DNA from: Eutreptiella sp. 'Long Island Sound 2002'
Lineage: Eukaryota; Protista; Euglenida
Assembly (NCBI GenBank): GCA_964036045.1
Contig: OZ038378.1
Span: 77,872,001-77,936,000 of the forward strand
Length of the DNA: 64,000 nt
Reading direction: 5' to 3'
Under the pieces are notes generated by a model. The model was given only the letters and a program-made list of their open reading frames with translations. It had not been told where the DNA came from and searched no databases. Shown here piece after piece: positions 19,251 through 58,700 of the stretch. Each line of letters starts with the position of its first letter. The first letter of the stretch is position 1. The position numbers were made by a program, and so were the translations under genes.

Positions 19251-20499
19251 AATTAGCCGCCGTTAGCTTTGAGAACAGCGCTTCTCTTGGCCCATGCACG
19301 TCGTGCGGTCGCCCGTATGTTTCGCACCTGCAAATATGGACCCAAAGGCCCTGAGCTCTGTAACGACTTTCGTGCTCCACTCCCCCATCGAACCGTGTGG
19401 CCGGTGAACCACCACCGTCCCCTGTTCCACCGCTCCACCTTCCCGCAGCAACGTGACTGTGACACAAAGGTCGTGCGGCACATTGACCATCGTGACGTGG
19501 GATGCGGGTCTCATCTGCGTCACGGGCCGGGGGTGTTGGCAATAGCAAGACGATGGCCCACTCCGCACGTCCCCACACCGTCGCACATTCCCCGTGGAAC
19601 GCATCCTCCCCGTGTACCACCCACGGAGATCGGGGGGTGTACGCCACCCCCTGCATGCGACGTGAGGAGAGGCACCGACACCGGGTCCTCTTGTTGCCGA
19701 TGTCTGTCAAAGACATCCCTAGTACGACCATCAGGGAAGCAGGGGGAGTGAACGGCATGGACGTCCCTAGGCAATCCGGCTTCCAGTATTGGTTTTTGTA
19801 GCCGCCAACCACATATGCATCACCGGTGGCGGATATCTTCGTGCGCTTGGTGGCCTTCTTGTGACGCACCGGGTGGAGGAGACGGTGCACTGGCAGGCTC
19901 GCTTTGAGGCCCATCGAGCTGTCAACCATACCTGACCCACCATGATAGGGCCGACTCCCGTAACTGGAAGATGCAGATGGTCTTCGTGACAGTCGCGCTG
20001 CCCATTGCCCTGGCACAAAGCACGGAAGCCCTGCATGAAAGAGGTTACTCGTGGGGTCCGTCATGGACCTCACCGCCATCTTTGTGCGCGGCCTAGACAG
20101 CACATAGATGTCCCGACCCTTAAAGCTGTAGGACCGGGTTGCCCACTGCCGTCTAGCCCACTGCACTTGCAGCCAGTGAGCGTGCGCACACGCGTATACG
20201 GAGCACGGCATGAGAAGACCGATCCCGAGCGTTCCCATCGCTCTGAGCAAACGGTCAATCGATGTATCCCCGGCATGCGATGCAAACGCCGCCCACGGAA
20301 CCATGAACTGTCCGCACACCCCGTAGTGCCCATGCAGGTCGTCCACCATGGCCTGCAGTTCGCCCTTGACCACAGCTGAGTGATGACGCGTGAGCTGGCC
20401 CACACTAGCCACCACAGAGTCGCAGCACACGGCTCGGACATCACCTAACGGAAGCCCCTTGCCGGACTGGACCGCCACGTTGGACAGGTCCCGGGGCAG

Positions 20500-21700
20500 G
20501 CTTTCAAAGTGCAAGGCCTCAGCCTTGATTGCGGCATTCAACCGCACAACCCCTGTTGTAGCGTCGGACAGATATGGTGCCGCGTAGCACACCATGCCAC
20601 CAACGACCGCCGCCATCACCTCATGGGGCACCAACACGGGCCTTGGCGTGCTCTTGCACCACCCCAAGAGAGCCTGGCAGCGGAGCACGTGCGTCTCCTT
20701 CTTGGACAGCAAGCCGTTAGGATCAAGCCGGAGGCCCCAGTACGGCACCTCACCGTGGACCGCTAGACATATCCATGGCGCGACCGCATTTTCCGGGTCC
20801 AAGCGCACCATGATGGAGTACATGCTCGCCGTGGTGGTGTGCGCGCACTTGCGAACATTGACAGACATGCCCATGTCCGCCAAGTATGGCGCAATCACCT
20901 CAGCGTACTCCAAAAACTGTCACAGCGTATGCGCTATCAGCGGGAGGTTGTTGCAGTATGCGTGAAGTATTGGTGGCACGGCGTGGCGGGCATCATCCTG
21001 CGCCTTGCAGGCAAGGCACAGCAGGAGCGGCTCCAGGAGAAGGAGATAGAGCACAACGCACTTTGCACTGCCCTGCCGCGAAGGAGGCGGATGCTCGGGG
21101 TTGGGCCGTGCGGTATGACAATGCGCACGGTGGAGCCATAGGTGACCATGTGGAAGAGTCTAATGTGCTCCTCCGGAACCCCCATGTGGCGTAGGAGGAG
21201 GGCTAAGGCCCCATGCGGGGCGATCTTGAAGGCCTTGGGCATGTCAAAGGCCAGAAGTTGGTTCTCCTCGTGACCACGTTGTAGCTTGAGCTGCGCAAGG
21301 AAGACTGGCGCTGCCGCTGTAGAGCTCGGCATTGCCCCGAACTACCAATCTGCCACCACCCCCTTGCGGCCTAGGACCGCTGTGAACCTTCGCATGAAGG
21401 GGGTCACGAGCAGTCTCATGTCCTGCTGCCCCAATGCTATGGGTCGGTGTGCGTCCAAATCCCTTGCGGCCGTTCCCTTCGGCATCAGCCATATGATGGC
21501 CTCATGCCGCAATTCCGGGACTTTCGCGCCACGGAGAATGGCCCAATAACCATGCACAAGGAGGCCCTGCATAGGGTCCGACCACTCCGCGATGAGGGCC
21601 GCTCTGAACGTGTTGGACCCGGCACCGTGCCCTCCACCACCGCCTGCTTCACGGCGTCCTTGAGGTTCCGCAAGGTGTAAGCTTGCAATGATCTCCACCC
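20500..21700 (-). pseudogene. LINE reverse transcriptase domain
   Basis: WLMPKG...HRPIALGQQD, FDMPKAF...PH, QGSAKCVVLYLLLLEPLL, AYCNNL (YxDD reading YCNN at 20947-20958), GMSVNVRKC, VPYWGLRL. Confidence 0.9.
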
Positions 21701-35402: not shown

Positions 35403-36030
35403 CTGGAAGGTGGTACCAAGGACAGTAGAGCTACAAACAAGGACATGCCCCACTTGGCCTTGGTTTGCTGTTGCCCCCCTTCAAAGTTTCAGAGCACCAC
35501 TCATCGCAAACTGGGGCCCATCCTTTTCCAGCTGCCCCAACTTCGTGTGCCTTGGGGCTGGGGCAGTTTCCATTCGTTTTCCAGCAGTCCAGTTATGCCC
35601 ACAGTGTTGTACGTCAACTGACCCAGTCTATCGAAAACATCTGCCATAACTTTGGAACCTCGAACTGCTCCTCTGTGGTTTATCCGAATCCACCTGTGGC
35701 ATATTCAAAATCATGATGCGTTTGGACCCATATCCCAGGGCGACAGTCATCGGCAGTCCTCAGATATTATCTGAGACCTTCAGAAATTGTTTTACTTGTA
35801 CCTAAGTGGGCCACAAGCAATTAACGAAGGTCGGCCTTGGTTAGGTCCGCCTTACAAAATTTGAACCTTTACCATTCGGTGAATTATGCCTTCATCAAGT
35901 GAGTCACGCGCCAAAATGGACGCAACAAAGTGATTACTGTATAGAAATCATCGTAAATCACCGCAGTGTTTTACGAACGATCCCCTCCATTGGTCCTAAG
36001 CATCATATTTACAATACAATGGCGGAGGAA

Positions 36031-36410
36031 CACCTAGGATTTTATGAGGTACGGGAATCCCGTAAATGAACTGTCCAAAAACTGCCACCATCGCGATTCA
36101 CGGCCCGCCGCAACCCCATTTTGCCGAGGTTTCGGTGATTTGTGCCAAATCTGTGCGCATCTGACGTGATTTAGATAGCGCAATTGGTAAAATACGACGT
36201 TATCTAGCTGCTGTGCTGAAATAACGCCGATTGCATTACCGGATGTCGCGATAAACCAAAAGTACCGCCATTTTTGCCCTTTTCTTTCCACTTTTGGGCC
36301 AGAAACGGTTATTTTAATGATGTCCTTGCGGTGTCACTAGATTTGAAATTGATCAGGTTTGTCCCTAGTGCCCCGTGAGGCTAGGCAATCAATGATTTGT
36401 GCCTATGCAT
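36031..36410 (+). repeat. Left terminal inverted repeat
   Basis: Reverse complement aligns with ~39120-39500. The translations agree: LRYLNHVRCAQIWHKSPK (minus) versus RYLNHVRCAPIWHKSPK (plus). Confidence 0.9.
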
Positions 36411-38269: not shown

Positions 38270-38339
38270 GGGAGTGTGGGTCTGACCATTACAGCATTTC
38301 CAAACCTAATGATGGCATATGTGCCAATACATTTGTTTG

Positions 38340-39200
38340 GAGCCTTTCTTTGCACCCTCTGGTTCAAGCTGTTGAGTAAAGAGCATGCACAGGCACAAAT
38401 TGTTCATTGTCTAGCCTCACCTAGCACTAGGGACAAACTTGAACGACTTGAAATCACACGCACGGGCAAAGATAGCACTATAATTGACATTTATGTGTTC
38501 AAAAGTGCAAATATAGCTGTTTTGGGCCTTTAGTGGCACCCTCTGCGCCATAACCCAAAGTAAAGGCCATGCACCGTCACAAATCATTGCTTGCCAAGCC
38601 TCACGTAGCACAAGGGACAAACTTCATCAATTTGAAATCACACGAAGGCACGACGGCATCACTTTAATCAATATTGACGTGTTGGAAAGTTCAAATAAAA
38701 ATGCTTTCGGTTTTCTTCTGCACCCTCCGCGCCATAACCTTGAGTAAAGGGCATGCACGGTCACAAATTGTTGCTTGCCAAGCCTCACTCAGCACAAGGA
38801 ACAAACTTCATCAATTGGAAATCACACGAAAGGGCACGTGTATCACTATATTCAACATTTATGTGTTCAAAAGTGCAAATATAGCTGTTTCCGGCCTTCT
38901 TTTGCACCCTCCCGACCCCAGGCTTGAGTAAAGGGAATGCGCAGTCACAAATCATTGCTTCCCAAGCCTCACGTAGCACTAGGGACACATTTCATCAATT
39001 TGAAATCACACAAAGCGCGACCGTATCACTTTAATCAACATTTGTGTCTTCAAAAGTGCAAATATACCCGTTTTGGGCGTTTTTTGGCACCCTCCGGATT
39101 ATTCTTCTTGGGGAAAGGGTATGCACGGGCACAAGCCATTGCTTGCGCAGCCGCCGAGGGCACTAGGGACAAACTTGATCAATCTGAAACCTAGTGATAC
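38340..39200 (+). repeat. 184-bp tandem repeat, ~4.7 copies, upstream of the transposase start
   Basis: The (T/A)GAGTAAAG..CATGC anchor recurs at about 38373, 38557, 38741, 38925 and 39109. The last unit overlaps the TIR. Confidence 0.9.
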
Positions 39201-39500
39201 CACAAGGACATCATTAGAATCATCGCTTATGGCCCAAAAGTGGCAAAAATGGGCAAAAAGGGTGGTATTTTGAGTTTATCGCGACATCCGGTAATGCAAT
39301 CGGCGTTATTTCAATACGACAGCTAGATGACGTCATATTTCACCAATTGCGCTATCTAAATCACGTCAGATGCGCTCCGATTTGGCACAAATCACCAAAA
39401 TCTCGGCAAAATAAGGTTGCGGCGGGCCGTAAATCGCGATTGCGGCAGTTTTTGCACAGTGCAGATACGGGATTCCCGTACCTCATTAAAATGCTAGGTG
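39120..39500 (-). repeat. Right terminal inverted repeat
   Basis: Inverted counterpart of 36031-36410. Confidence 0.9.
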
Positions 39501-39894
39501 TCCTTGTCTTCTTCGTTGTTGGCTTCTTCTTCTTTTTTCTTCGTTGATCCTCTCTTTCTCTGCATCGACACTGCGTTGTCTTCGCTTCCTTCATTCTTTC
39601 TTACTTCATTCTTTTCCCTCAGCACCTGAAAGAATAGGAGGGACAAAAGATTCAATACAATACAATAGAATACAATAAATAATAATACTTCAAAAAAGAC
39701 AGTCACATCAAGCCTGCTTACGTTCTCATTTCGTTTTGAAATTCCCATTCCACCATCCACAGTGGTGGTTGCGGTGGTGTCGTAGACTGGCCTCGGACAC
39801 CCATGTTAACCATGTCGTACGATTCTTTCGAATCAGTTAAATGCCGTTAAGGTGCCATATATGGCTCCATCTGCTAATCTTTATTCAGAGCTAT

Positions 39895-42466
39895 TGAAGC
39901 GGTACCCAGAACCCCATGACCATGGTGGGGTATACAACCGGTCTCCGTGTGCCCACTAACCCCATGTACGGAGGAAAAGACGCCCGGTGAAGCCCGGTGA
40001 GAGCCCGGCAGGAGCGTGTCCCTTGCCGTAAAGCCCCCGTGACGGCATTCCGGCCACTTGGGGCATGTTACCATGTACCGGCAAACTGCCATTTGCCGGT
40101 ATCTTACTATTTCACGCCAATCTGCCCCGCACCGCCCTCGGCCGTTGATTCGGCAACCTAACCCTAACAACAGATGTAGGTAAGACGTGTTTGTGTGAGA
40201 GATCTGGGCATTTCAGCTATTAGCGGCCGCATCGGCAACCGATGCGTCGCCCGCTGAGATTTACACATTAGAATATCAGGAATCAACGGGGTTTTATTTT
40301 CATATTGTTTCCGTAAATTTTCATGCTTCCGTTCTGATAATCAATGTTTTGACTGCTGGCGGTTGGCTCGCGACTTTAGCGTAACTGCCAGTTTAACTGT
40401 TATTTACAGACATTTTAGCGCAATCCGTGACGAAGACTCTAAAGTCTTCAGGAATTGCATTGATGCATCTGCAATTTTCACATTGTACACTCGCAACCTT
40501 AATCCGAATTTTTCAGGATTTCGAAATCGGATTTTCGACTTCGACATCCCCGCACTTGATTTGACCTCTTTCGAGTGGACCTACGTGCTTCCCTATGCAC
40601 GAATCAACTTTCCTTTTGTCTTGCCCTCCATTTGTCTTAGAGATATGGGCAAAACAAAGTTGATTCGTGAGGCCACTTGTGAGGGTCATATCTCGTGCTG
40701 CTTGCGAGGAATGACAATAGGGAAGCATGTGATGTATTCACAATACTCCCGACGTAATTTACGAAGCTTTATACGCCCTGCGTCTCCACACGTGCGCGCT
40801 AGCGTAATGTATCATGGTCAAGAGGGTAGAGTTTGCGTTATAACTCTTTGGCCATGATATTGCGTGCGTTAAGATAACTTTCGAGTGTAGCGCGCGAGTG
40901 TTGGTGTTGCATAGGAACTTTCCTTGAGTTCCTATGAGCGATTGACACAAAGTTATGACCTTGGAGGGGTATGACATATCGTGGGGGGAGCTACCTTTTT
41001 GGGCAGTATGTGGTATGTGCCATGTGTTGTATTGCGTGCCCATTTGGCGGGTTTGGCTAAGAGCGATACACCCACCAATGGACCTCATATTGCACGAGGC
41101 CCTTTCTTATACTCCCCACGATCAATTGCAAGCCTAACCTTCGTGGAGGGAAGCTTGTGTGGCGATCCCAAAGCGATGCGTTGGGAGCAAGGTGTGTGTT
41201 TTGCAATTTTCCATATTTTCATGTGCCCACTTGGGAAGTAGCGCTCGTGACCTTTCAAAGCGCCCCAAGTGGAGCACATATGTGGAATCGAAGGTCATTG
41301 GTGTCAAGTCATTGTGTTTAGAAGGATTGAGCGATTACTCAATCCAAGCCGAAGATATTATAATATATTTGTGCGCCTTTCAAGGCCCTTTTGGGTGTTT
41401 TTCCGCCAATATTGCTATTTTTTGCCCGTCATGATGTCAAGTGGCGACCGTGTATCTCAACGTTGCGCTCAATTGACATCATGACCCAAGTATGTTCTGA
41501 GGGTACATACTTCGGTGCCCAACATATCTTGAACCCGGCGAATAACTCCTCCTGGGATTGGCATACCGTGGCCGCCATGTTGGCAATTTGGGACTATCCC
41601 AAATCATGGGCTCACTTGGCGACCCTGCCATTCCCAAAACCGGAGGAGTTGGGCGATGCCCAAAAGATACGTTGGACGCATGTGACTTGATACCAATCCT
41701 ATGGCACACTCCGGTCCAAGTCGGGCATGTGCCTCATTTGCCCCGACCATGAGTGTGCGCATTTTCGGCCATTTTGAGCAGTTTTCCATATTTTCTGCCC
41801 GCCGTGCACCATGTTCAGCCTCCTCGTGCACGCCGGACTCATGGAGCAATGGACCATATATGACATGGGTGTTATGGACATTGGTCCCCATGGTTCACAC
41901 ACCACGTGGGCGAAGCGGAGCAACCTTCGTTAGGGTGCTAGCCCAAAGTGAGTGTGGACAATTTTGCCATTCTGGCATTTGTGGACCCAATTGGGATTGT
42001 CACCACGCCGAGTGGCATGAAGATCTTTGGAAGCCAAGGGCATGGGAGTCTCTGTTGGAATCCCGGTGGATCGCGTATGGAATGGCGGATCTGATGTCCA
42101 AGCCGGCGTGGAGATATACTATTGGGAGCACCCCCGAATTTTGGCTCATTTCGAGCAGCCAAAATGACCCCCTTTTGGGACCCCAATTTCACCCCCCCGT
42201 GTGGTCAATTGGCGGCCCCATATCTCTATGCCCATGAGGAGCCCGGACCTAATTTCAAGTTGTACACTCAGATATGTGTCCTAGGTCCCGCCTCCTGTCC
42301 TGTGAGCCATTGGCCTTGCCCTGGCAGGGCGAGTCACGCGTGGGAATGACGCCAATTTGGGTGATTTTGGCATCATGACCCCACTTGATGAACCCGTGGT
42401 GCCCTGATGCCGAGACCTCAGAGGGAACCAGTTTGGGTGAGGGCTCCAGGGAGTTGGTACTCGAAG
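39895..42466 (+). repeat. 5' LTR (probably truncated at its 3' end)
   Basis: Starts TGAAGCGGTACCC. Colinear with 53147-55718 at a constant offset of 13252 bp, with scattered substitutions. Confidence 0.85.
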
Positions 42467-42488
42467 CAATCCCCAGTGCGAAGGCGGC

Positions 42489-45400
42489 ATGCCCGGGAGC
42501 TTCGAGCTCCGCGAGGACATGGGCGAGGACCGCCTGCGGGCAGTGGAGGAATGGCTGCGGGCGGAAGGGTATGAGTACCGCTTCCGCCGCAAGCGCTGGA
42601 GGACCTGGACCCGCCCGGACAGGCCCGGCGAAGGGCTGCGCCCCGACGGGATTGAGGAGGACGAGAAGCCCAACGAGTACCCGTCGGGCGCCTCGATCAA
42701 CATCTCCATGTGGGACATGATCGAGAAGGAGTTCCCGGAGCTGGGGAACGAGCGCCGGCTGCAGGGCAGCAGCAGCAGCGGCGCGTCTCCTGGGAAGGAG
42801 AAGCGCTCCGCCGGGGACAGGAGGCGGGACAGGAAGTGGCGGGAGTACCAGGAGTCCCTGGCCGCCGAAGCCGCCCAAGGCGCCAGGGGCGGAAGCCCAG
42901 CCCACAGCCCCAAACGGGCCGGTGGAGGTCACCACCCCGGCCACACCACCCTCGGCGACTTCCTGGAGGTCGCCAAGCAGGCCAAGGCCAAGCCCCGTCC
43001 GCTGCTCCTGAGGAAGTCAGGCCCCAGCAGCGACGTGGAGTCGGCCCACCGCGGGAGGATGCCGGCCGACCAGGGCAGCTCCAGCAGCAGCGTCGCTCCC
43101 CACCAAAGTGATGTGGCGCGCGCCTGCGAGCGCACCTGTGGGGTGCCCTGCAACCTTCGGGTTGCCCGGCAACGGGCCACGCAGCAGAACGCTGCCGTGG
43201 AGGGCGCCGTCGGCATCGCCCATGAGGAGGCCACCGAGTGGGGCAGAGGCATCGACTTCCACGCCTCGACCGTGGCAGCCATCGCGGCCGGTCTCACGGC
43301 TGCGGCCGCCCATGAGGCAGTTGCTGCCCGGATCAGGGGTGAGGTGGCGGCAACCGCCGAGGAAGCCCGCCTGACCCAGGAGGCAATTGCCTGCAAGGAG
43401 GCCGAGGTGAAGGCGCTGGAAGAGGCGCTTGCCCAAGAGAGGGCAAAGAAGGAGGCGGAGGAAAGGGCCCACGCCAAAGCGACGGCCAAGGCCCAGGCGG
43501 ACGCCGCCAAGAAGGACGCCATCGAGGCCGCGCGACGAAAGGTCGCTGAGGAGAGGGCCAAGAGGGAGGCGGAGTTGGTGGCGTTGGAAGCGGAGAAGGC
43601 TCGGCTGCAGCAGGCCCGGGAAGCTGAAGCGGCTCGTGCCCGGGAGGAAGCCGAAGGGCGAGCTGCCGCAGCCACAGCCGCCGCAATGGCGGAGGCGGAG
43701 GCCAAGCTCCGCCGCGAGACTCCCCCGGGAGGATCCCGAGTGGAGACCCTTCGAAAGCTTTTCGAAGGGGATGCCTCCTCCAAGATGGCGCTGCATCCGG
43801 AGGAGGTGGACACAGGCAGCAGTGGGAGCAGTGGCCCCACTGCCCATGGACGGAGGAAGGGCAAGGGGAAGACCCCCGAGAGGTCACGGAGGCCAGCGGG
43901 TGGACACCCCCACGACAGCGACCCCTTCTTCACCGCCAGCGACGAGGATGAACGAGGCCGCCAACGTGCCGAGGAGTGGCTGGCGGAGGAGGCGGAGACG
44001 TCCCCATGGAGCCGGAAGGTGAGGATGAGGATCTCCCTCCTCCCTACGGGAGCTCGGAGTCTTCCGAGACCGAGACGCCCAGGTGGGGCGACATGGACGA
44101 GGATGACGACATGGACTTCGACATCACGATGAAGCGCCAATCCTTGGACCCACCGAGGCGACCCGGCGGAGACCCACCGGGACCCCCTGGCGGAGGACCA
44201 TCAGGACCCCCTGGAGGACGCCCACCAAGTGGACCCCCTGGAGGCGGACCACCGGGCGGAGGAGGACCCCCTGGACCGGGCGGACCCGGCTGAGGCCCTC
44301 CTGGAGGACCCCCTGGAGACCCCGACGACCCACCAGGGAACGGCGACCCGGATACCACCTGGCGGTGGATTGTCTACCTCCGCAGGAGGGTCCAGTTCCT
44401 CGAGCGCGAGGTAGACACGGGCAAGGGCGAGATGACTCGCATCGCCAGGGTCGCCGCGCGCGCCCAGAGAGAGCTGGACATCGCCAAGATCGAGATGGTC
44501 AAGAGCGCCAGCGTCGCGACCGCCACCCAGAGGCAGCTGGACATCGCCAGGGCCGAGACCAGGCAGCTGAACAAGGTCATCAGCGGCCTGCAGCAGAGGT
44601 TGGACCTGCTGGAAGCCCGTGGGAGCGTCGGCAGCGACCACCCACCCCTGGAGTCTGGCTCGTCAGACGACGGCTGGGGACCCGGACCAGGTCCAGGCAG
44701 ACTCCACGCCCCCGGCGGAGCCCCCGGGAGTCGCCCCAGCGCCAGTGCCCCCTCTCTCACCGCCCCCTCTCACCACAGCGCGGGCCGCCGCAACGAGCGC
44801 GTGCCGCCCGGCAGTGGCACTGAGGATTGGCGTGATGAGTGGCTCAGCGCGGAGTACCACAACCGCCGTGCTCCACCGCGGACACCGGTACGCCCCCGAC
44901 GCCCTGCACCAGCCCCGGAGCCAATTCCAATGGCTGGTGGACGTTCTGGTGGACTCAGGGATGAGGTCCCCAGAGGAGACGTGGAGTGGGATGTCGGCGG
45001 AGGTGAGGACCTGGACCTGGACCTGGAGGAGTTCGACATCAGCCCGCCGCGTGGTGTACGACGGGAGGCCGCTGAACGCAGCCGCCGGTGCGTGATGAGG
45101 AGGCGTACATGGAAGGAGTACGGCGTGAACATCTGGGTTCAGCGTACATGGAGGAACCACGGCGTAGCCACGCGGATACCGGGGAGGAGATGGAAGTGGC
45201 AGCCGTGGGAGTCCGTGGGAGAGGCCGATGGGAACCTCGGTCGACCTCGCGGCCGGCGTTCATGGTCTCTAAGGCCGCGGATACCGCCGTGTGGGAAGAC
45301 TTGAAGGACATCAAGCCCCCCATGTACGATGGCAACCCCCTCAACCTCGACCGCTTCTTGGAGAAGCTGGACGATTGGGGGGTGACCGTAACTGAGGACA

Positions 45401-46737
45401 TGGATCCCGCAGATGCGGAGAAATATGTCTTCAGACGGTTCAGTTACCGCCTGCCGGAAGTGCTCCAAGAGCTATACTTCGTGGCGACCAAGGAGGGGAA
45501 AATCAAGACCCTCAAGGAAGCCAAGAAGTGGCTCAACGAGCAGGAGCGGGTGGACGCTCCGCAGGTGGCTGCCAAGCGCTGGAAGTTCATCAAGCTTCAG
45601 CATGATGGACGGGAGATCCGCCTACGGGACTGGCGAGACTTCCGAGGGCAATACACCCTCTTCCGCCGCAACGTGGAGGACTGGAACGAGGGTGACGAGC
45701 AGGCTCGCCTGCTCTCCATGCTGCCGGAAGCATGGATCAAGAGGGTCACCAAGGAGGAAGCCAAGAGGGCCAAGTCCAACCACACGGTCAAGATGATGCT
45801 CCCCAAAGAGTATCATATGAACGTGGTGGCTTGGACGAGGAAGAACGTGGCCCGGGATGTCAAACGGCACTCCCTGCGGAACGCTCTCCTCATCACCGTA
45901 TCGGGCGATCGCGAGAAGACCGCGATGCTGCGCCTTGACGAGTGTGACGTGAGCGGCCAGACCATCCGTCTGCAGGCCATCCCGGCGCGGATGAGCTGCG
46001 ACGAGATCCTGGAGTGGGTCGGAGAGGAGGTGCTCAAAGAGTACCGGAACCTCCACCACACCCGCGGGTTGAGGCCCGGCGACCGTGACGTCAACTACGT
46101 TGGCGAGGGGCCTGGCGGGGAAGCTGCCATGGACCCAGCGGGAGCCGATGGCGATGAAGCTCTCGTCGACGATGACGACGACGATGAGCCCGCCAAGATG
46201 GCCGTTTGTGCCTTTGTGGCCCACAACGGCGCGGGGAACAACCGGGGAAGCTGGAAGCCCCTGCAGCCGGGTTGGAAGAAGAAGGAGAAGAGGGACCCTC
46301 GCCGCATTGGCGACCCTCCGCTGTCCTTTGGGGAGTTCCTACGAGCTCACCCACAGGGCTGTTTCGTGTGTTATGGGAGGAAGAAAGGCTTCAACCATGA
46401 CCACCGAACATGCCCCACCCACCAGGCCGACACGGAGGCCTACAAGAAGGCGCACGGGTCGAAGAAGCGTGCACCTGCGGGTATCCGGGAGGCCAAAGTG
46501 GAGGTCGACAAGGACGAGCTCTCAAAGCTGATGTCGGTGGGGACCGAGTTAGCCAAGGAGATCCAGGAGATCAAGAGGAACTGGGTCCCCAGGTCGGACA
46601 ACAAGAACAAGGAGAACAACCAGAATGACCAGAACAAGGACAAGGACAAGAAGCCTAGGAATAGGGGAAGGAAGAAGGGTGTCAACGAGGTTGATGCGGA
46701 GGAGAATACCCCTACTTCCACAACCGACGCCCCCTAG
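42489..46737 (+). pseudogene. gag: Very long gag region: Ala/Glu coiled coil, Gly-Pro repeats, capsid-like domain, Zn knuckle
   Basis: ORFs 42489, 43976, 44432 and 45088 are linked by frameshifts and a stop. KPPMYDGNP capsid motif; CFVC-x8-H-x4-C knuckle at 46360-46413; TAG at 46735. Confidence 0.8.
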
Positions 46738-47049
46738 CGGAGCCCCTGCAGCCAAGGGCCCGAGCTAGGGCGGTCACAGGATGGTGTCGTGGGAAGCGCC
46801 ACACCATCCCAGTCGGGAGTCGATAAGCACAAAGGAACTGCCGCGGGCGGAAGGCCCGGTCCGGCACCCAGTCGCGGTGGCCAGGTGAGGGCAAGTGAAG
46901 GCACGAACCCTTGCACCCGTCCATCCTTCGCGACCAAGAACGTGTTTGATGTACTTCAAGATCTATCCGAGAGCATCGGAGGATCACCCAGACCGCAGCT
47001 GGATGCTGCAGATGGGCAGCCTGAGCCCATTGTCCACGGCCTACACGAG

Positions 47050-47500
47050 TTGCTTGTCGAACTTCTGGAACGGCCGGAGATCCTGAGCTTGCGCGCCGTG
47101 CGCCGAGTAGGGCGTGAGCGGCAGTTGCACCTTAAGGTCCGTGCCTTATGCGGGGAAGTGGAAAAGGTCTTCGACGTGTTGGTCGACACGGGAGCGCAGG
47201 TCAGCTTGGTCAAGGCTGGCCTACTTCCGCCAGAGTGTTTGACCGACAGTCGGAAACCTGTCAGGCTGAAGGTGGCGAATGGCCAGTACATGGTGGGAGG
47301 CACGAAGGAAGCGGCAATTGGGCTGCAGTTCGTGAACCACCGTGAGCTGAGCCGCCCAGACCTCGGCAAGGAAATCCTCCTGCAAGGTCGCTTCTACGAG
47401 GCCGAGATAGACTGGGACATGATCGTTGGGTACGACTTCATGATGGAGACGGACTCCGGCGTCCTCCCGGCCAAGGCCTCAATGACCCTGTACCAGGACG
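47050..47500 (+). CDS. pol: Retropepsin aspartic protease domain
   Basis: VLVDTGAQVSLV (DTG at 47185-47193); later MIVGYDFM. Confidence 0.92.
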
Positions 47501-47616
47501 ACCAGCTCTGGTGGCTTTCGTCACCTGAGCACCATGTGGAATGCCAATGGATCCACCCCGAACGCAATCAGCTCGAAGTGGCCGCGCTGGACACTGAGCC
47601 AACTGGTCCTGCAAAC

Positions 47617-48048
47617 CAGGAGTACGGCGTAGTGCCGGAAGTGGCGAGCCGAGTTGTCACGGACCTGGGAGCTTAGGATCTGGCCCTGGATGCGTTCTCT
47701 TCAGGAACCTCCGCCCATCTGCGGGTTTGTGAGAAGTACTGGAGCGCACAGGACTCCGCCTGGAAGAAGCACTGGGGTCCGCATCAGGGCTTGATGTGGA
47801 TCCATTGCCCTCGATGGGACATTCCAAGGGCGATAGCGAAGGTTCGCAAGGACCGCGCCAAGGCAGTGCTGGTTGTTCCTATGGGATGCACCGAGGAGGA
47901 AAGTACCCGACATTGGGTAGTCTCATTGACCAACATGACCTTAAACAAGGTCGTCCTACCGGCTGAAGAGAGTGTCTATCAGGACGCTAAGGGACAGCCC
48001 ATGCCAGCCCAGAGATGGCCTACGGAATTCCACTACGTGGATGGGGGC
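47617..48048 (+). pseudogene. Phage-Dam/DIRS-type DNA N6-adenine methyltransferase-like domain within pol
   Basis: QEYGVVPEVASRVVTDLGA*DLALDAFSSGTSAHLRVCEKYWSAQDSAWKKHW...LMWIHCPRWDIPRAIAKVRKDRAKAVLVVPMG...HWVVSL...VVLP. In frame with PR and RT, with one TAG at 47674. Confidence 0.7.
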
Positions 48049-48559
48049 CTTGATCAGGCCGACACCACGGATTTCGTGTGTGTCAACCGCATCGTAGCGG
48101 AGCCATGGCGGCAATGCTTCGCGGTTTCCCCTGTTGACATCGGAGAATCGGAAGACCCCCTCATTGAAGAGGAGTTGGATCTGGTTCAGGGGTATATGGA
48201 TCAGCCCTTTCACGACTGGGGAAGCCCGCGTGAGGGCAAGAGCCAGGACAAAGCCTGGTGGGAAGTGGACTCGATCGTCTCTGGTTCTTATGACGGGGAT
48301 ACCTTTGTAAGGAGGGTACTGGACCACATGTCCAGCCAGGACGAGCCAATTGGAGGCAACCCACCCACCTACGGCGACCTATTCCGAGGCAAGACCAGAG
48401 ATGGTCCTTTGGGCCACCTGGGAGGACCACCTGAGCCGAAGCCGAGCGGGGTCGCTACCCCTCAAGTAAGCTCAGTGGTCCAGGTGCCCGGTAAAGCCAA
48501 GGCGGAGTCCGATGATTGCCCCAAGATCCAGGCATTGAGGGCCAGGCTGAAGCAGAAGT

Positions 48560-49585
48560 ATGGGGACACCTTCTTCAGCGGAAAGCCTGTGTTTCCCCCA
48601 CCGGTGCGTGGACCGTATGGCGAGGCCAAGATACGACTAAAGCAGGACCCCCGTGTGTATCGGCACCGGGAGTTTGCCCTGAGGGGCGAGACAAAGGAGG
48701 CCATGGAGAAGATCCTCCGTGACTTCATCGAGAGAGGCTGGCTCGAGCCGTGCCAGTCCGAATGGGCCTCTCCGTGCTTCGTCGTCCCCAAGAAGGCGGC
48801 CGGTGAGTGGCGGCTGGTGGTCGACTACCGCCGCCTAAACGCCCAATTGCAGCATGACAGCTAACCGCTGCCCCTCATTGAGGACATGCTGCAAAAACAA
48901 CACCGGCGGAGGATCTTCACGGTGATTGACCTGAAACATGGTTATCATCAGATGCCTCTCGCCGAGGAGTCCCGTGCCTGCACAGCCATGAGCACCCCAC
49001 TTGGACCTCTCCAGTGGAAGGTGATGCCCATGGGTGTTACCAACGGCAATGCGGCTTTTCAGCGGATGCTGGAGAACCTGCTTGAGCCGGTGCGTGACTG
49101 TGCGGACCCCTTCCGACGTGATCATCGCGTCCGGGGACCCCAGTATGAGCTACGAGGAGCTCTTGGAGGCACATGAGAGGGACGTCACTCGAGTGCTGGA
49201 CCTTCTGGTTCGGCACAAACTCACAGGCAGCAGTGACAAGGCCACCATTGCGGTAAGCGAGGTGGTCTTCGCTGGCCACGTAGTCGGGAACGGGCAGCGA
49301 AAGCCCATACCTGGCAAGGTGGCTGCGATCGAGCACTGGGAAAAGCCCAAAACGGTCTCTGAGCTACGGGCGTATCTGGGGTTCTGCAACTACTACTCGG
49401 GGTATATCAAGATGTATGCCGAGTATGCAGCCCCCATGACGACCATGCCCAAGGGCAACCGAGAGGAGACCAAGAAGGGGTCCAAGAAGGCTCTGGTCTG
49501 GGATGCTGAGTCCGACCGTGCCTTTGAGGGGATGAAGCAGGCGCTGCTATCCGCAGTGGGTCTGCACCTCGTGGATCCTGACTGA
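48560..49585 (+). pseudogene. pol: Ty3/Gypsy reverse transcriptase
   Basis: WASPCFVVPKK, WRLVVDYRRLN, S*PLPLIED, IDLKHGYHQM, MPMGVTN, HWEKPKTVSELRAYLGFCNYY. A frameshifting deletion at ~49111-49120 destroys the xVDD motif. Confidence 0.95.
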
Positions 49586-49975
49586 GGGTTCGTCCTGCGC
49601 ACAAACGCTTCCGACTACGCCGTTGGCGCTATGTTGGAACAAGTGCTTGACGATGGGAGGCACCTGCCCGTGGCCTTCTGGAGCGGAGTCCTGGCGGAAG
49701 GCCAGAGAGGGACTTGGACGCCCCGAGAAAAGGAGGCGTATGCCATCGTCATGGCTCTCAGGAAATGGGGTGGGTACATAGCCCTCCATCCCGTCACCGT
49801 CTGCACGAACCATCAGAGTCTGCAGTCGTGGCACAAGGAGCACGTGGACACCCCCTCTGGTCCCGCCTCCCGACGGGCAAGATGGCATGAGACCTTGGCC
49901 AAGTGCGACCTCACGGTTGTTTATATTCCTGGTAAGGACAACAGTGTGGCGCACTGTCTCAGTAGGTGGGCCTAT
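49586..49975 (+). pseudogene. pol: Ty3/Gypsy RNase H
   Basis: TNASDYAVGAMLEQ, REKEAYAIV, TNHQSL, YIPGKDNSVAHCLSR. Several conserved Asp residues are substituted. Confidence 0.92.
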
Positions 49976-50339
49976 CCCGCCAGCAAGGGCATGACGGATA
50001 TCTCTGCCCATGGCGATGAGGCTGAGACCGCTGAGGCCAAGAAGATCATTGAAATGCAGCGCCTGATGGAGGAGGAGGGTGTTAAATGCTTCGTCGTCAT
50101 GGCTGCGGATGCCCCCCTCGGATCGAGGATGGGCAGAGCGGTCAGAGTACTCGCCCCTGATGGAGCTGAGTCCGACAAGCACCTCTTCCCTGAGTCCTGC
50201 CTCCAGGACGACTGGACCGACGACTACGCTAAGTCCGAGGCCTTTGCGGCCGAGTATAGGGCTGTGACCGACCCTGATGACGGGCAGAAGTGGCCGAGGG
50301 GCTGACTGAGGAAGATGGCAAGCTCTACCAGAGTCCCGA

Positions 50340-51686
50340 GTGCACGAGCTATGTGAAGCTGGGAACCACCACATGCTGCATCCAGGGGTCAAGAAGCAAG
50401 CCCTTGACATGCAGCGCCGGTTCGAGATCGACCAGATCAATCTCTACACCGCCATCAAGAAGGTCAGGAAGGGTTGCTCGCTCTGTCAGGCCTGCAATCC
50501 CGATAACCGGAAAGTCAAGCAGGAAGCCCAATGGACCCCGGTTCCTGACCAGCCCATGGAGAGCATGGCCATGGACGTCTTCTCCATGCCCGAGGTGCAC
50601 ATTGGCAAGGAGACCTTTGACTGTGTGGTTCTTTGTGTGGATCGCCACAGTGGCTACGTAGTAGCCGTTCCGGCACGCAAAAAGGGGTTGCTTGCCAAGG
50701 AAGTGGCAGTCATGATGATTCGTCATTGGCTGACTTTCTTTGACATCCCCCGCACCATTTGCAGTGACCGAGGGCCCCAGTTCACTGGTGGCTGGTTCAA
50801 GGCTATGTGTACCCTCATGGGAATACGTCATGCCAAGAGCGTTGCCTATCTCAGCCGGTCTAACGGCCGGGCTGAAGTGGCTGGATGGGAGCTGTTCGAG
50901 AAGCTGCGCAAGATTCACATCACCAATCCACGGCGGAACTGGTTTGAGGAGATGTGGCCTGCCCTGAAGGCGCATCATGACACCCCCACTCCGGGTGGTT
51001 TGTCCCCTCACCAGATTCTGTTCGGCAGGGACCCCCTGGGTCGGGGACTCCCCTTGTCTGGTGATGGTATGGCCATGGACGCCAAGGAGTTCTTTGCGCG
51101 GCAAGAGGCAACGGCGCGAGACATCCGCCAGCAGCTCGAGAAGGAGCATGCTGAGCGTCAGAAGTCCGCCCCAAGCTCGACAGCGCAGAAGTTCAGGGTG
51201 GGAGACCCGGTGTGGGTGATCAGACCCCGCCCTATGGGCACCCAACGCACCAAAACCTGGTTCACACCCGGAGAGGTGGTCCGCAGGATTGGTGAGGACA
51301 CCTACCGCATCAAGGTGGGTCACGGACAATTCCGGGAGCGCCACGAGAGTCAACTCCGTGTGCGGGAAGCCGACCTCCGTGGCCGACATGTGTCCCTGGA
51401 CTATGCCGCACATGAGGCTGATTCGGACGACGACTATGCTGAGCAGGACGACTATACTGTGGAGAAGATCCTGGCTCAGCGTCCGAGCGCCTCGGCACCC
51501 GGAGGCCTGGAGTTCAAGGTTCGTTGGCGAGGCTATGGGCCGTCCCACGACACCTGGGAACCCGTCTCCTCGTTCGTGCCGCGGATTAACACTCCCTTCA
51601 TGGGGTACATCTGCAAGCACAAGACCAAGATCCACGTCTCGGACTTGGCGGCACTCACCCGGGCGATTGCAGCCAGGGGTGCCTGA
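50340..51686 (+). CDS. pol: Integrase (HHCC, DDE, GPY/F) with C-terminal chromodomain; ORF open over 448 codons
   Basis: HHMLHPG...CSLC; MAMDVF, CSDRGPQF, SNGRAE; FRVGDPVWV; chromodomain from 51453: YTVEKILAQR...EFKVRWRGYGPSHDTWEP. Confidence 0.95.
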   Translation: MHELCEAGNHHMLHPGVKKQALDMQRRFEIDQINLYTAIKKVRKGCSLCQACNPDNRKVKQEAQWTPVPDQPMESMAMDVFSMPEVHIGKETFDCVVLCVDRHSGYVVAVPARKKGLLAKEVAVMMIRHWLTFFDIPRTICSDRGPQFTGGWFKAMCTLMGIRHAKSVAYLSRSNGRAEVAGWELFEKLRKIHITNPRRNWFEEMWPALKAHHDTPTPGGLSPHQILFGRDPLGRGLPLSGDGMAMDAKEFFARQEATARDIRQQLEKEHAERQKSAPSSTAQKFRVGDPVWVIRPRPMGTQRTKTWFTPGEVVRRIGEDTYRIKVGHGQFRERHESQLRVREADLRGRHVSLDYAAHEADSDDDYAEQDDYTVEKILAQRPSASAPGGLEFKVRWRGYGPSHDTWEPVSSFVPRINTPFMGYICKHKTKIHVSDLAALTRAIAARGA

Positions 51687-53135
51687 TCAGCGCCCTGAGC
51701 TCTCCCCTGATGCGTTTTGAGCGCTTGTGTGGTCGACGGATCGTCCCTCACTTGCTTGCTCTCTTCCATCTTCCGGTGACCTGCCATCAGAGTGGCCATA
51801 TACCCCCCCCTGCTGAATCCAGAGGAGGATGGCCCCTCTCTTCAACACTTCCATTCGTCACTTCCCCCCCTGCTGAATCCTTGGGAAACCAGGTAGGGTG
51901 ACTGACCTTCACATTTTCTGAGCTCTTGGGGCCTTGAAGCCCATACGACGTTGCGCAACGGATGCCGCTGTCATCGGCATTGCGATTTTTTGGTGTTTGG
52001 TCTGGTTCCATGGCACTTGCGGAATCCAGACCAGTCGACGTGTGTCTGCAGACTATATATGGCCTGAACTCAGGCGTTTTCCTGTCCACCCTCCTGCATA
52101 TGCCTTATCCTAACCGGGGCGTGGTTTGGCGCTCTGTCCAGAGTGTGTTTACACGCCTATTACCCCGCTTATTGCTTGTCTTTCTGTTCCCCAGGATATG
52201 TGCATCTGTATGTCAGCCCATCACTGAAGTATGGACTGTTTTTCCCCCCAGATGGGATGCGAATCGACTGGAAGGCGCCCTGAGTCGCCGTTTACATGCT
52301 CTTACATAAGGTCCAGCCTGGACCAGTACCTAAGTACAGATTCTTCTGTTTGAGTGCTCGTGATACTGCGATGTGCTGAAATCCTGATGGCGCCAGGCGG
52401 GAAGCCCAGTTGCCTGAATGCACTCCCAGCGGTTCGCCACTGTCAGTCCCAGTGTGAGCCTACCGACTCGCAGACGCACTTGCAGTCGGGTGGCGGCCTC
52501 CGGTGCTCCTGACCTCGGTCAGTCTGCCTGGGAAACTGGTGGTTTGAGGACTCGACGCCTCCACCCACACTGCATGAGGACTCCCTCATGTATGTCCTTC
52601 GTGGTAATAGGGCGAGGGAAAAGACGGCCTTGATGCCCGATCCCTTAAGGAGGAGCTCGTTTGGCTGTACCACTCTGGACTCCCGTCGTGGATATGGACA
52701 TGGTGCGCCCGAGGAAGGACCCGTGGGGACTCTCCCCCAGCCGGCGGGCCTTGGGAAGCTTTGGGTAGCCTGATGGATCTTTCTGGTCGCTTTCGACCTG
52801 TGGGACCACCTCGGTCGTCATGTGACGCCTCTGTTGGCCGTGTATGCCACTGCCACTGTGGTAGTGACCGTCGCAGCCGGCACCCGGTGCGCCTGGTATG
52901 GGTTAACGGGTCCTTTGGATGCCGAACAATCGCCGCCAGGACCCGGGACTTGATACCTGATATTATACTTGCAGTTACTAACAGCTACAGCACCGTACCT
53001 GTCTTACTGTGGGATTTGGGCAGCCTAACCTGCGAATCAGCCTGAAATGAGGATGTGACACCCCCCCTTCAGGGGATGGTCCTGGGTACCCGCTGCCATG
53101 CGTGGTGTTATTGAGCCCCCCCCAGGGTTTGCTCT

Positions 53136-53146
53136 AAGGAGGGGGG
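53136..53146 (+). promoter_or_regulatory. Polypurine tract
   Basis: AAGGAGGGGGG lies immediately before the TGAAGCGG start of the 3' LTR and is absent before the 5' copy. Confidence 0.85.
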
Positions 53147-55718
53147 TGAAGCGGTACCCAGAACCCCATGACCATGGTGAAGTATACAACCGGTCTCCGT
53201 GTGCCCACTAACCCCATGTACGGAGGGGAAGACGCCCGGTGAAGCCTGGTGAGAGCCCGGCAGGAGCGTGTCCCTTGCCGTAAAGCCCCCCTGACGGCAT
53301 TCCGGCCACTTGGGGCATGTTACCATGTACCGGCAAACTGCCATTTGCCGGTATCTTACTATTTCACGCCAATCTGCCCCGCACCGCCTTCGGCCGTTGA
53401 TTCGGCAACCTAACCCTAACAACAGATGTAGGTAAGACGTGTTTGTGTGGGAGATCTGGGCATTTCAGCTATTAGCGGCCGCATCGGCAACTGATGCGTC
53501 GCCCGCTGAGATTTACACATCAGAATATCAGGAATCAACAGGGTTTTATTTTCATATTGTTTCCGTTACTTTTCACGCTTCCGTTCTGATAATCAATGTT
53601 ATGACTGCTGGCGGTTGGCTCGCGACTTTAGCGTAACCGCCAGTTTAACTGTTATTTACAGACATCTTAGCGCAATCCGTGACGAAGACTCTAAAGTTTT
53701 CAGGAATTGCATAGATGCATCTGCAATTTTCACATTGTACACTCGCAACCTTAATCCGAATTTTTCAGGATGTCGAAATCGGATTTTCGACTTCGACATC
53801 CCCGCACTTGATTTGACCTCTTTCGAGTGGACCTACGTGCTTCCCTATGCACGAATCAACTTTCTCTTTGTCTTGCCCTCCATTTGCCTTAGAGATATGG
53901 GCAAAACAAAGTTGATTCGTGAGGCAGCTTGTGAGGGTCATATCTCGTGCTGCTTGCGAGGAATGACAATAGGGAAGCATGTGATGTATTCACAATACTC
54001 CCGACGTAATTTGGGAAGCTTTATACGCCTTTCGTCTCCACACGTGCGCGCTAGCGTAATGTATCATGGTCAAGAGGGTAGAGTTTGCGTTATAACTCTT
54101 TGGCCATGATATTGCGTGCGTTAAGATAACTTTCGAGTGTAGCGCGCGAGTGTTGGTGTTGCATAGGAACTTTCCTTGAGTTCCTATGAGCGATGGACAC
54201 AAGGTTATGCCCTTGGAGGGGCATGACATATCGTGGGGGGAGCTACCTTTTTGGGCAGTATGTGGTATGTGCCATGTGTTGTATTGCGTGCCCATTTGGC
54301 GGGTTTGGCTAAGAGCGATACACCCACCAATGGACCTCATATTGCACGAGGCCCTTTCTTATACTCCCCACGATCAATTGCAAGCCTAACCTTCGTGGAG
54401 GGAAGCTTGTGTGGCGATCCCAAAGCGATGCGTTGGGAGCAAGGTGTGTGTTTTGCAATTTTCCATATTTTCATGTGCCCACTTGGGAAGTAGCGCTCGT
54501 GACCTTTCAAAGCGCCCCAAGTGGAGTACATATGTGGAATCGGAGGTCATTGGTGTCAAGTCATTGTGTTTAGAAGGATTGGTCGATTACTCAATCCAAG
54601 CCGAAGATATTATAATATATTTGTGCGCCTTTCAAGGCCCTTTTGGGTGTTTTTTTGCCAATATTGCTATTTTTTGCCCGTCATGATGTCAAGTGGCGAC
54701 CGTGTATCTCAACGTTGCGCTCAATTGACATCATGACCCAAGTATGTTCTAGGGGTACATACTTGGGTGCCCAACATATCTTGGACCCGGCGAATAACTC
54801 CTCATGGGCTTGGCATACCGTGGCCGCCATGTTGGCGATTTGGGACTATCCCAAATCATGGGCTCACTTGGCGACCCTGCAATTCCAAAAACCGGAGGAG
54901 TTGGGCGACGCCCAAAAGATATGTTGGACGCATGTGACTTGATACCAATCCTATGGCACACTCCGGTCCAAGTCGGGCATGTGCCTCATTTGCCCCAACC
55001 ATGAGTGTGCGCATTTTTGGCCATTTCGAGCAGTTTTCCATATTTTCTGCCCGCCGTGCACCATGTTCAGCCTCCTCATGCACGCCTGACTCATGGACCA
55101 ATGGACCATATATGACATGGGTGTTATGGATATTGGTCCCCATTGTTCACACGACACGTGGGCGAAGCGGAGCAACCTTCGTTAGGGTGCTAGCCCAAAG
55201 TGAGTGTGGACAATTTTGCCATTTTGGCATTTGTGGACCCAATTGGGATTGTCACCACGCCGAGTGGCATGGAGATCGTTGGAAGCCAAGGGCATGGGAG
55301 TCTCTGTTGGACTCCTGGTGGATCGCGTATGGAATGGCGGATCTGATGTCCAAGCCGGCGTGGAAATGTACTATTTGGAGCACCCCCGAATTTTGGCTCA
55401 TTTCGAGCAGCCAAAATGACTCCCTTTTGGGACGCCAATTCCACGCCCCCGTGTGGTCAAATGGCGGCCCCATATCTCTATGCCCATGAGGAGCCCGGAC
55501 CTAATTTGAAGTTGTACACTCTGATATAGGTCCTAGGTCCTGCCTCCTATCCTGTGAGCCATTGGCCTTGCCCTGGCCGGGCTAGCCACACGTGGGAATG
55601 ACGCCAATTTTGGTGATTTTGGCATCATGACCCCACCTGATGAACCCGTGGTGCCCTGATGCCGGGACCTCAGAGGGAACCAGGTTGGGTGAGGGCTCCA
55701 GAGAGTTGGTACCCGAAG
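53147..55718 (+). repeat. 3' LTR, part shared with the 5' copy
   Basis: Direct repeat of 39895-42466; homology stops after CGAAG. Confidence 0.88.
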
Positions 55719-58700
55719 GGCATAGGGTCAGTTGCTTCGTCCCTACCTCTGGCGGGTCCGGACGAGGGGTCAATTTTGGAGATTTTTGAGCTAATGTCAG
55801 TTCCGGCTGAAACAGCGCATTTTCAGCTACCAGCTCCTGGCGGATATTGGCGGGGCCATATCTCTGGCTCAGAGAGGAGTTGGGACCTGCTGTTAAGGGA
55901 GCATATGGAGCCAGCGTCGGTCTGCCTTGGTGCCCCTTGGTTCCTAGGAACTCGCCTGTGGCCGGGCGGGACACCTCCCCTATTGGCAGGGTTTCAGGGT
56001 CCGGACTGAGCAGGGCATGGGTTGTGTTTGAGCCCCCGCCCCCACCAGCCACTGAGAGGGTCAGACCTGGGATTGGGATATGAGTTGGGACTGAGTGTCT
56101 ATTGTCATGTGCTGCTCTTACCCCAGTCCAGTCTTAACCTCATGTGTACATATCCTGATGTGTTGCTGTACATACTTTTGTTCCCTTGTTTCAGAGTGGC
56201 AAGGATCCTGAAACGCTTTGTCTCATGACACGAGCGTAATTGATGTCCCTGTGAGCGCAGTGCTTTGCCTGCCTGCTTGCTTGTGCGTGTCACCGCAGCG
56301 TCCCGTGGCCAGGCCCCCCACGGGAACGCGTCAGTATTAGCGGTACGTACAACCCCTGGGTGAAAAGACATTGGTCCCTGAAAATATATGTTCCTATCAA
56401 CACGTATTCCGAGTCTTACATATGTGATACACCCATCATTCCCCGCATTCATACATCAGTCAACAAATATGTCCAATTATGGGTGCTCGCAATGCATATC
56501 ATGTTTGATAGCCGGATTCATGGTCTACAGGTCTGAAGGTCTACAGCCAAATGTCTACAGAAACGGTCTACAGAACTGTATACGATTGGCTGGGCTGGCC
56601 AATATTCCTAGTGTGCGTACCTAGGGAACTACCTATATCCACGGGATTTATTCCTCTTGGAGTCTTGGCCGCATTCCCTCGGACCCTGTTTTCCTCACTC
56701 TCTGTTGCTCCTATTTCTGGTTCTTTCCGAACTTCCTTATTTTCCCTGCTTGTGAAAAACTGTGTTTCCAAAAAGCAAAAACATAATCCCGCCTTGCAAC
56801 CCTCACATACAGGAGACACACGCATTGCGAGGAATTGTGATCTCAGTCACGTAGGTCCGGACTGACAGGGACAGGACACCCGTGCAACATGGTATACAAT
56901 CCTGCGTTCCTCGTCCTCTGTGGCCGCTGTATCAAACCTGTGTGCCCTCTACTCTCTTGATCATTAATTAATACAATCCCCACCATTGTGCTTTACAGCT
57001 TGCGCTCCGGGGGATTCCTGTCCGTCTGCCTCGTCTCCATCCTGTGGTAGGCAACACCCCCTTTCAAGAGCCTGCGCGGATGGCTTGCCTGCAGTATCAC
57101 CTGGGCAGAGGTGTCATCTGCTGCCTTGGGCCTGCTTTGGCCCCTGGCAGACAAGGAAGTTGCTCGGTATGTCTGATCGTGCGCTCCTGGCAGACTTGCA
57201 GGGCCAGGTAACGATCTGGTACGGCCGCCTGTTCGTCCCTCGGCCCACTGCTCAAGCAAAGGTGTCACCCGGTACGGCTGACAGAGCGTGTCTCCCTGCC
57301 GTTGCATACCTTGAAGGCATCATCACCCGCATCTCACCCGTGCGACCTCAAGCCGTGTGGCTCCGGATGCTGACGGATTGGAGTCAGACCAGCGCATCAG
57401 GCATCGGTTGTTCTGCACACATATATACCGTTCATGTATAGCAACATATATGGCCCGGGGGCCTCTTGTACACTGACGGACATCCCGACGCAATCATACC
57501 TTGCTAGTGCTGCAAGGGTGTGCACAACGTGTATCTCAGCCGGGGCTTTAAGGTCATGGGCCCATTTGGTCGCCGTTCCCGGCACCAGCGTAGTGGTTGA
57601 CTGCGGAACGTGCTCACCCCAGAGCACCGCTGTTAAAAAAACGTGTGTGTTCATTATGGGCCCTTGCAGTTCTCCGCATCTTGGTCATCTGTCTGGTCCG
57701 TATCCCCAGCCCAACTTGTCTCTTCTTTCCGCTCTCCGGCTCGTCCTTAGTGGACCCGTACTCCGGCCGGCTTTTGTTTCCCTGGGACCCGGCAGAACGC
57801 AAGTCCCCCTCGAATGCCGTGTGGCCTTGCCACACACGACCTGACTTGTCGTGCTTTCGTCTCCCGAACGTTGTATGTCCACCTGGTTCATGATATTCAC
57901 GACGGTCGGATTCCACGTCTGCTTCCTACCCAGTCTCCCCCTGGTGCCCGACCCGTAGACCGCAGCTATTGCTTCATCTTCACCTCCGGTTGCTTACCCT
58001 TCTTCTTCTTTCTATCCTCCTCCGCCCATTCCTCCTCTATCAACCATCGCGCCCACCGCAGCTGTTTCTCGCCTGGCACACCTGCTCTCTGTCATACCGT
58101 CCACCCCATCACCCTTGGGGGAAGGGTGTATCCCCAGGGTACATACTCCCAGGTAGGTAGGTAGGTATCTTCGGGAGCTCGAGATGCCTCCTCCGACAAT
58201 GCAGGAAGAACATCTCATCAAGGGTACATCCCGTCCCTCCCACTGCCCTAGTTCAGGTGCCTCCTAAGCCACTCCTGCAGGGGCTTGGGAAGGCAGTGTG
58301 GCGGCCACCCGGTCCATGTGTTCCGGCTGTAAGGGTGTCCCCACATGTGTGGGTAGGGTCACATGCCCCTTCCTGCAGGCTGCAGCTCTCAGGGGTTGCC
58401 CAGCCGTTTGGAGTATCTCTCACCACAGGGGGTATTGCTCCCGCGAGTGTACGGTACGATCGTCTCGGCCCTGTGGCTTCAGTTGCGGGGCCCCGCTGCT
58501 TGGCAGGGAACCCCCTCATCGGCTGTGTGCGGGCTCGGCTGTCACCGGTGGGTGCCATGGCTCCAGGTGACGTTTGCCATGGTCCTTGATGCAGCCCAGC
58601 CAGGCTCAGACCACTGGCATTGGAGCACTGCTCCTGCTACTAGGTGGGTAGGTAGGTCATCTTGGGACTGGGGTCGCCCCCCACTGGGGTCTTACCAAGA

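Follow-up and report, generated by a model that had tools for sequence, protein, structure and literature searches.

Within the pol gene of a chromodomain Ty3/Gypsy element, between protease and reverse transcriptase (RT), lies a methyltransferase-fold domain homologous to Dam (PF05869) that reads HCPR where relatives have the motif IV sequence NPPF/Y, and whose families with histidine at this position probably form a single clade. Our preferred reading, held at a little under even confidence, is that the domain is a non-catalytic module that, instead of writing 6mA, would bind the RNA or the RNA:DNA intermediate of the element itself. The element spans 15.8 kb of the window (the whole 64-kb stretch of DNA analysed) and contains the following features:

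39895–42466, plus strand: 5′ direct terminal repeat (LTR) of 2572 bp, starting with TG, 3′ end approximate; blastn self-match of 96.5%
42441–46737, plus strand: long 5′ coding region, divided in the ORF list into three pieces without stops (563, 336 and 553 codons)
47122–47511, plus strand: aspartic protease, DTG at 47185; weak Pfam matches (gag-asp_proteas/RVP, E 0.01–0.04), aligns to the proteases of relatives
47617–48048, plus strand: Dam (PF05869)/PCIF1-like N6-adenine methyltransferase-fold domain, 144 codons; assigned from Pfam, homologue search and fold
47689–47697, plus strand: D-x-F motif (D-A-F), retained, on the presumed SAM-binding side
47803–47814, plus strand: HCPR where motif IV would read NPPF/Y, from the alignment with relatives
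48151–48372, plus strand: helical module of ~75 residues (WW.D...G.Y..D.FV.RV.DH...PPT), common to His-type families and mostly missing in NPP relatives
48784–49420, plus strand: reverse transcriptase (RVT_1, E 4e-18), end approximate, broken by a stop at 48862 and a frameshift near 49115
49589–49903, plus strand: RNase H (RT_RNaseH, E 1e-21), with a stop at 49583 just 5′ of it
50331–50873, plus strand: integrase zinc finger and core, D,D(35)E spacing (rve, E 8e-8)
51453–51563, plus strand: chromodomain (Chromo, E 3e-9, above the cut-off)
53136–53146, plus strand: polypurine tract, immediately 5′ of the 3′ LTR
53147–55718, plus strand: 3′ direct terminal repeat (LTR), the second of the 2572-bp repeats of the blastn self-match

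The domain order PR-RT-RH-INT, with a DDE integrase that carries a C-terminal chromodomain, is that of chromodomain Ty3/Gypsy elements, as are the direct LTRs and the polypurine tract, and the RT, RNase H, rve integrase and chromodomain from this copy all pass their Pfam cut-offs. The chromodomain has Y, W and Y at what we take to be, after HP1, the aromatic-cage positions. The LTR pair is 96.5% identical, with 89 substitutions and no gaps; the TG start is present, and we found neither a clear 3′ LTR end, nor a clear primer-binding site, nor a target-site duplication. Pol is interrupted by stops at 47674, 48862 and 49583 and by frameshifts near 49115 and 50305, so this copy is dead. The 5′ coding region gave no significant Pfam match; its last piece (553 codons) contains a Cys/His knuckle, ends at a TAG in frame with pol and is gag-like, a label that we infer from its position.

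A sequence-only reading of this DNA had described some 145 codons in frame between the DTG protease and the RT, and had likened them to Dam and to the methyltransferases (MT) from DIRS elements. Both observations hold: the segment comprises 144 codons, shares its frame with the upstream protease and the downstream RT, and has one in-frame TAG (47674–47676) exactly where it had been placed. When the isolated segment was compared to Pfam with an X at the stop, the check proposed at that time, Dam PF05869 was the sole match (E 6e-4 to 1e-3, 19–20 bits), which is weak because it falls below the curated cut-off of 28.1 bits. A search of the segment against 1.84 billion representatives retrieved 143 proteins (E<=0.001), several of which exceed the Dam cut-off (e.g., P0297, with 39 bits, and P0409, with 44 bits); of the 77 members of the alignment, 40 match Dam at E<=0.001 (best 9e-17). 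Additionally, the first-ranked cluster in the ESM atlas (score 0.94) has Dam on 14% of its members. Among the distant relatives (<55% identity, motif covered, n=78), the position of the window's His is occupied by Asn in 53, His in 24 and Tyr in 1, with NPPF or NPPY in 37, which bears out the claim that HCP stands at the NPP position. Sequence comparisons thus argue strongly, although transitively, for homology of the segment to Dam PF05869, the direct match being weak. Searches with the domain against PHROGs returned no match, those against PDB sequences (single and profile) returned nothing meaningful, and a tblastn against phages gave one match only, with an E of 0.3. Among the relatives, P0385 shows the order RT-RNase H-Dam, as in DIRS, linking the domain to the DIRS MT. 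Another protein, P0393 (719 aa, on a 2.5-kb contig; its source gives Genlisea aurea), combines Dam (with NPPF), an aspartic protease and a C5 DNA methylase; this EpiLTR-like order in a land-plant record is perhaps due to contamination.

An AlphaFold2 model of the domain, for which the input alignment contained many NPP relatives, reached a pLDDT of 94.5. Methyltransferases fill the match lists of both structure searches: the best Foldseek matches were human and zebrafish PCIF1/CAPAM (E 3e-4, TM 0.64), followed by KsgA, and the wide VIA search also placed CAPAM first (Z 9.2, rmsd 3.4, 130 aligned), tied within 1 Z with KsgA (Z 8.6) and T4 Dam (Z 8.2). The predicted fold is therefore that of a class I SAM-dependent N6-adenine methyltransferase, as anticipated from the sequence. 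In both searches the model came closest to PCIF1/CAPAM, the cap-specific m6Am RNA methyltransferase (PDB 6IRW, 6IRX), but with 9–12% identity, and CAPAM has NPPF, WW and helical domains. The modelled fold does not decide the preferred nucleic acid, and RNA as the ligand is a lean and not a result, because of the tie of KsgA and T4 Dam with PCIF1 and because no PF05869 structure came up in the PDB sequence searches.

In the D/N-P-P-F/W/Y motif of N6-methyltransferases, D/N is catalytic and needed for activity and the aromatic residue stacks the adenine (PMC8287941). HCPR in the window departs from the [DN]PP[FYW] pattern of active N6-adenine methyltransferases, and does so throughout the family, as the proposed conservation check revealed: among 228 family proteins whose sequence includes this position, 174 have HCPR, 5 have NCPR and none has NPP. 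A metagenome relative, P0238 (~70% identity), likewise has HCPR. The His-type group extends further, with 21 rows among the distant relatives plus the window; these correspond to five to six families, whose motif variants are HCPR, HC[KN]P, HA.R, HGS[LP] and HG[AE]-like, and six representatives are 23–46% identical to one another. His is invariant in the His-type rows (22/22), whereas Asn occupies this position in 53 of the 56 other rows; the following Pro, Pro and Phe are found in 47, 54 and 41 of these 56 rows, respectively, while the same three columns are variable in the His-type rows. Conversely, the D-x-F motif is retained in both groups (D in 18/19 and F in 17/19 His-type rows, versus 50/52 each in the others). 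Two rows from the NPP clade carry HPPF or HPMF separately from the His group. None of 14 other His-type proteins matched Pfam Dam at E<=0.05, and these comparisons show that the His-type families mostly escape Pfam and that surveys based on Pfam thresholds undercount such elements.

The His-type families probably form one clade. In a quick tree that included the motif, the His group was one side of a branch with an SH-aLRT of 100; it remained whole, with an SH-aLRT of 92, when the motif columns were dropped from a MAFFT alignment, although a query-anchored alignment treated likewise left it in two, with weak support. A protease tree did not resolve the His group on one side (2 changes; 1 change in 24% of bootstrap trees), but the His-type proteases were the nearest by path (1.0–1.1 versus at least 2.6). 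An independent shared character that supports the clade is the ~75-residue module downstream of the domain: it was found in the three His-type families whose proteins reach far enough (3/3; E 1e-12 to 4e-4), whereas NPP relatives that continue to the RT lack it except for the first helix. The module has no Pfam match and, when folded together with the domain, showed a pLDDT of 41–64 and gave no confident model. Additionally, nine NPP-type proteins have DTG 117–207 residues before the domain, and P0379, P0396 and P0407 run on into an RT, which places the PR-Dam order before the His change.

The association of a Dam domain with Gypsy elements, implied by the sequence-only reading to be new, has precedents beyond these PR-Dam-RT relatives with NPPF. 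DIRS MT domains and captures of DNMT by Gypsy elements were known earlier (PMC3783388, PMC5890265), and Fernandez-Moreno et al. found DAM domains in Ty3/Gypsy elements, chromovirus-like ones included, from chlorophytes, Euglena, ichthyosporeans, an ochrophyte and Pyropia, with chromodomain LTRs accounting for 30.9% of DAM-TEs (bioRxiv 10.64898/2026.05.21.726589). Our element resembles the chromodomain DAM-LTRs (the DAM-chromovirus-like clade from Chlorophyta and the DAM-LTR from Euglena) in its Ty3/Gypsy pol, PF05869-type Dam, DDE integrase, chromodomain, high copy number and five-to-six-stranded alpha/beta fold. With a domain homologous to Dam PF05869 in the pol of an LTR element, it agrees with the DAM-LTRs, but lacks their conserved Asn-Pro-Pro pocket: HCPR is fixed here and the whole His-type group is devoid of Asn-Pro-Pro, which is present in almost all the DAMs from the preprint. 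Its screen used a threshold of E 1e-5, at which this domain (19–20 bits) and its group would likely escape. The main text of the preprint makes no mention of a His-type or inactive clade, nor of the order protease-DAM-RT, and its supplements may already hold His-type sequences; our literature search found no description of the group. Thus, the Dam-in-Gypsy architecture is already described, and the clade of His-type families, given the additional module and the evidence of selection, is apparently an undescribed variant. Two other assignments were rejected: EpiLTR, since neither pol nor six long natural copies nor the five ORFs that separate pol from the 3′ LTR gave a DNA_methylase match, and DIRS, since the element has a protease and an rve integrase, whereas DIRS elements have a tyrosine recombinase and neither protease nor DDE integrase. 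The DIRS1 MT is from the same domain family (Pfam Dam PF05869) and also lies within Pol, but follows RNase H (PMC3783388, PMC4738411), while in our element, which has a protease, an integrase and direct LTRs, the domain precedes the RT.

As the preprint proposes for its own elements, the domain could be a regular DAM-LTR enzyme placing 6mA on newly made cDNA, so that the host AMT1 would maintain the insertions in permissive chromatin. The architecture agrees with this, and in three species 6mA is more abundant on DAM-LTR insertions than on other LTRs (bioRxiv 10.64898/2026.05.21.726589). However, the preprint argues for activity from the conservation of Asn-Pro-Pro, which none of the 228 family proteins retains, and its own E. 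coli assay saw no rise in 6mA from heterologous eukaryotic DAMs; we consider this explanation very improbable for the element. Of the two functions first proposed for the domain, the marking of new copies with 6mA thus appears unlikely for the His-type lineage, since motif IV is lost, whereas that of a non-catalytic binder is the one we favour.

The domain is not a one-off insertion, which we rejected on account of the 80 relatives at 65–95% identity retrieved in a first search, of large clusters (1138, 2069, 646, 320 and 64 members in five of them alone) and of its presence in 30 out of 30 proteins spanning protease and RT, among 389 aligned family proteins; this last set is biased, because the domain itself was the query that retrieved many of its proteins. 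As the sequence-only reading had supposed, therefore, it is fixed in a Gypsy lineage, and the comparisons indicate a high-copy family with related proteins in the thousands. Naturally uninterrupted proteins show the order protease-Dam-RT-RNase H-integrase(-chromodomain) in a single frame. In contigs from four runs that span the segment, indels are not frequent and the TAG at 47674 is absent, so that this stop is private to our copy. The sequence occurs in three coded organisms and in metagenomes from estuary and sediment (0.23–0.58 of its words), and three estuary metatranscriptomes contain 0.06–0.12 of the words; a scan of metagenome contigs for the domain gave 2 short loci, at chance level, which were left unused.

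Within the domain, the variants shared between subfamilies comprise 9 silent and 3 replacement changes (pN/pS 0.10, P 2e-4 versus neutral), and those private to this copy 3 silent and 6 replacement (pN/pS 0.59), from a total count of 21 variants among 40 of 63 table rows, with the stop row excluded; the contrast between shared and private variants is not significant (Fisher P 0.09). On this sample, the shared variants show purifying selection on the domain. Selection against replacement changes could be explained by folding alone, if the domain were a vestige that must stay in frame and fold for protease processing and RT function, with no ligand of its own. Moreover, divergence between His-type families is greater in the domain than in the protease (34% versus 57% identity to P0305), which fits a relaxed constraint and a merely structural role, and motif IV is variable after the His. 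Nevertheless, a useless domain of 144 residues could be deleted in frame, yet it is kept in all the proteins of the biased PR-to-RT set and in families of as little as 23–46% identity, which also retain the His and D-x-F, and it is accompanied by a new conserved module; we give such a vestige about one chance in four.

A further alternative is that the domain is an active methyltransferase with a changed chemistry, in which the His would be a hydrogen-bond acceptor or a base acting on another acceptor, such as another base, ribose or protein (e.g., the element's own). This would agree with an invariant His exactly at the catalytic position, which could count against a non-catalytic reading, with the retention of D-x-F, and with silent variation inside the codons of HCPR: two of the shared silent changes (47811 and 47814) lie in its Pro and Arg codons. 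The clade-specific module could likewise provide a new specificity. On the other hand, the three residues after the His differ freely between families (CPR, CKP, APR, GSL, GAE), unlike in an active site, and no N6-methyltransferase with a His-type motif was found in the literature, as far as the passages cited here extend (PMC4738411, PMC8287941), so we regard a changed chemistry as rather unlikely, at some one chance in five.

The preferred reading of a pseudo-methyltransferase maintained by selection follows from the absence of both D/N and the aromatic residue in the His group, from the precedent of METTL14 and from the view of Iyer et al. on the DIRS1 MT. METTL14 lacks both residues and is inactive but still binds RNA (PMC8287941), and Iyer et al. 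placed the retroelement MTs, including that from DIRS1, in the PCIF1 clade as likely inactive proteins that perhaps bind template transcripts (PMC4738411). The parallel with METTL14 (a retained methyltransferase fold, a degenerate motif IV and RNA binding) is an analogy only, because METTL14 is an inactive MT-A70 subunit from an unrelated clade, and a partner catalytic subunit is not known here. Under this reading, the domain would have been captured by an ancestor with the order PR-Dam(NPPF)-RT; one of its lineages would then have changed the Asn to His, lost the Pro-Pro-aromatic residues, which position and stack the target adenine, gained the module of ~75 residues and diversified to give the five to six families. 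Made as part of Pol, the domain would enter the particle with the RT; the retained D-x-F side would continue to accommodate SAM/SAH or serve to stabilise the fold, contacts to an adenine or to the cofactor would come from the invariant His, and the domain would tether the RT to its template in the manner of METTL14.

A wider proposal, which we deem doubtful, is that through the Asn-to-His change, the loss of the PP-aromatic loop and the gain of the module, an apparently undescribed clade of Gypsy elements repurposed an adenine methyltransferase that it had captured. The product would be a reader of adenine or 6mA/m6A carried by the transposon, or else an enzyme with a new chemistry, and selection would have preserved it in five to six Pfam-invisible families and thousands of copies. 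If so, what retrotransposons gain from Dam domains would be binding and not methylation. Whether retroelement Dam domains are enzymes is contested, as they have been considered likely inactive relatives of PCIF1 (PMC4738411), while the 2026 preprint argues that they write 6mA but found no activity (bioRxiv 10.64898/2026.05.21.726589). A very successful lineage whose domain stays under selection even though the catalytic motif is gone offers a natural control: if the His-type copies show the 6mA or the benefit in expression that NPP elements have, catalysis by the element would not be the cause.

Several other characteristics of the window are worth recording. The 5′ coding region is unusually long for a Gypsy element, with ~900 extra codons 5′ of the gag-like ORF (42441–45304) that belong to no Pfam family and comprise a charged, coiled-coil-like ORF of 563 codons and a Pro/Gly-rich piece. 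The TAG that closes the gag-like ORF (46735–46740) is directly in the pol frame, and either stop read-through or a separate pol start is possible. Outside of the element, none of 84 flanking ORFs matched Pfam and no tRNA gene was found within the 64 kb; a 556-codon stop-free frame in a GC-rich block on the minus strand (19252–20919), also without a Pfam match, looks by eye like a decayed non-LTR element. A 184-bp tandem satellite adjoins the 5′ LTR (36030–36410 and 38321–39501), with an inverted partner some 3 kb off. Both LTRs run through a TGGTAC stretch (42450–42470 and 55702–55725), which resembles the start of a primer-binding site, and differ beyond it; a second element may follow the 3′ LTR, or the LTRs may end in a non-canonical way. 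Lastly, an imperfect inverted copy of the first ~20 bases of the LTR is discernible by eye at 53076–53098, about 50 bases 5′ of the polypurine tract.
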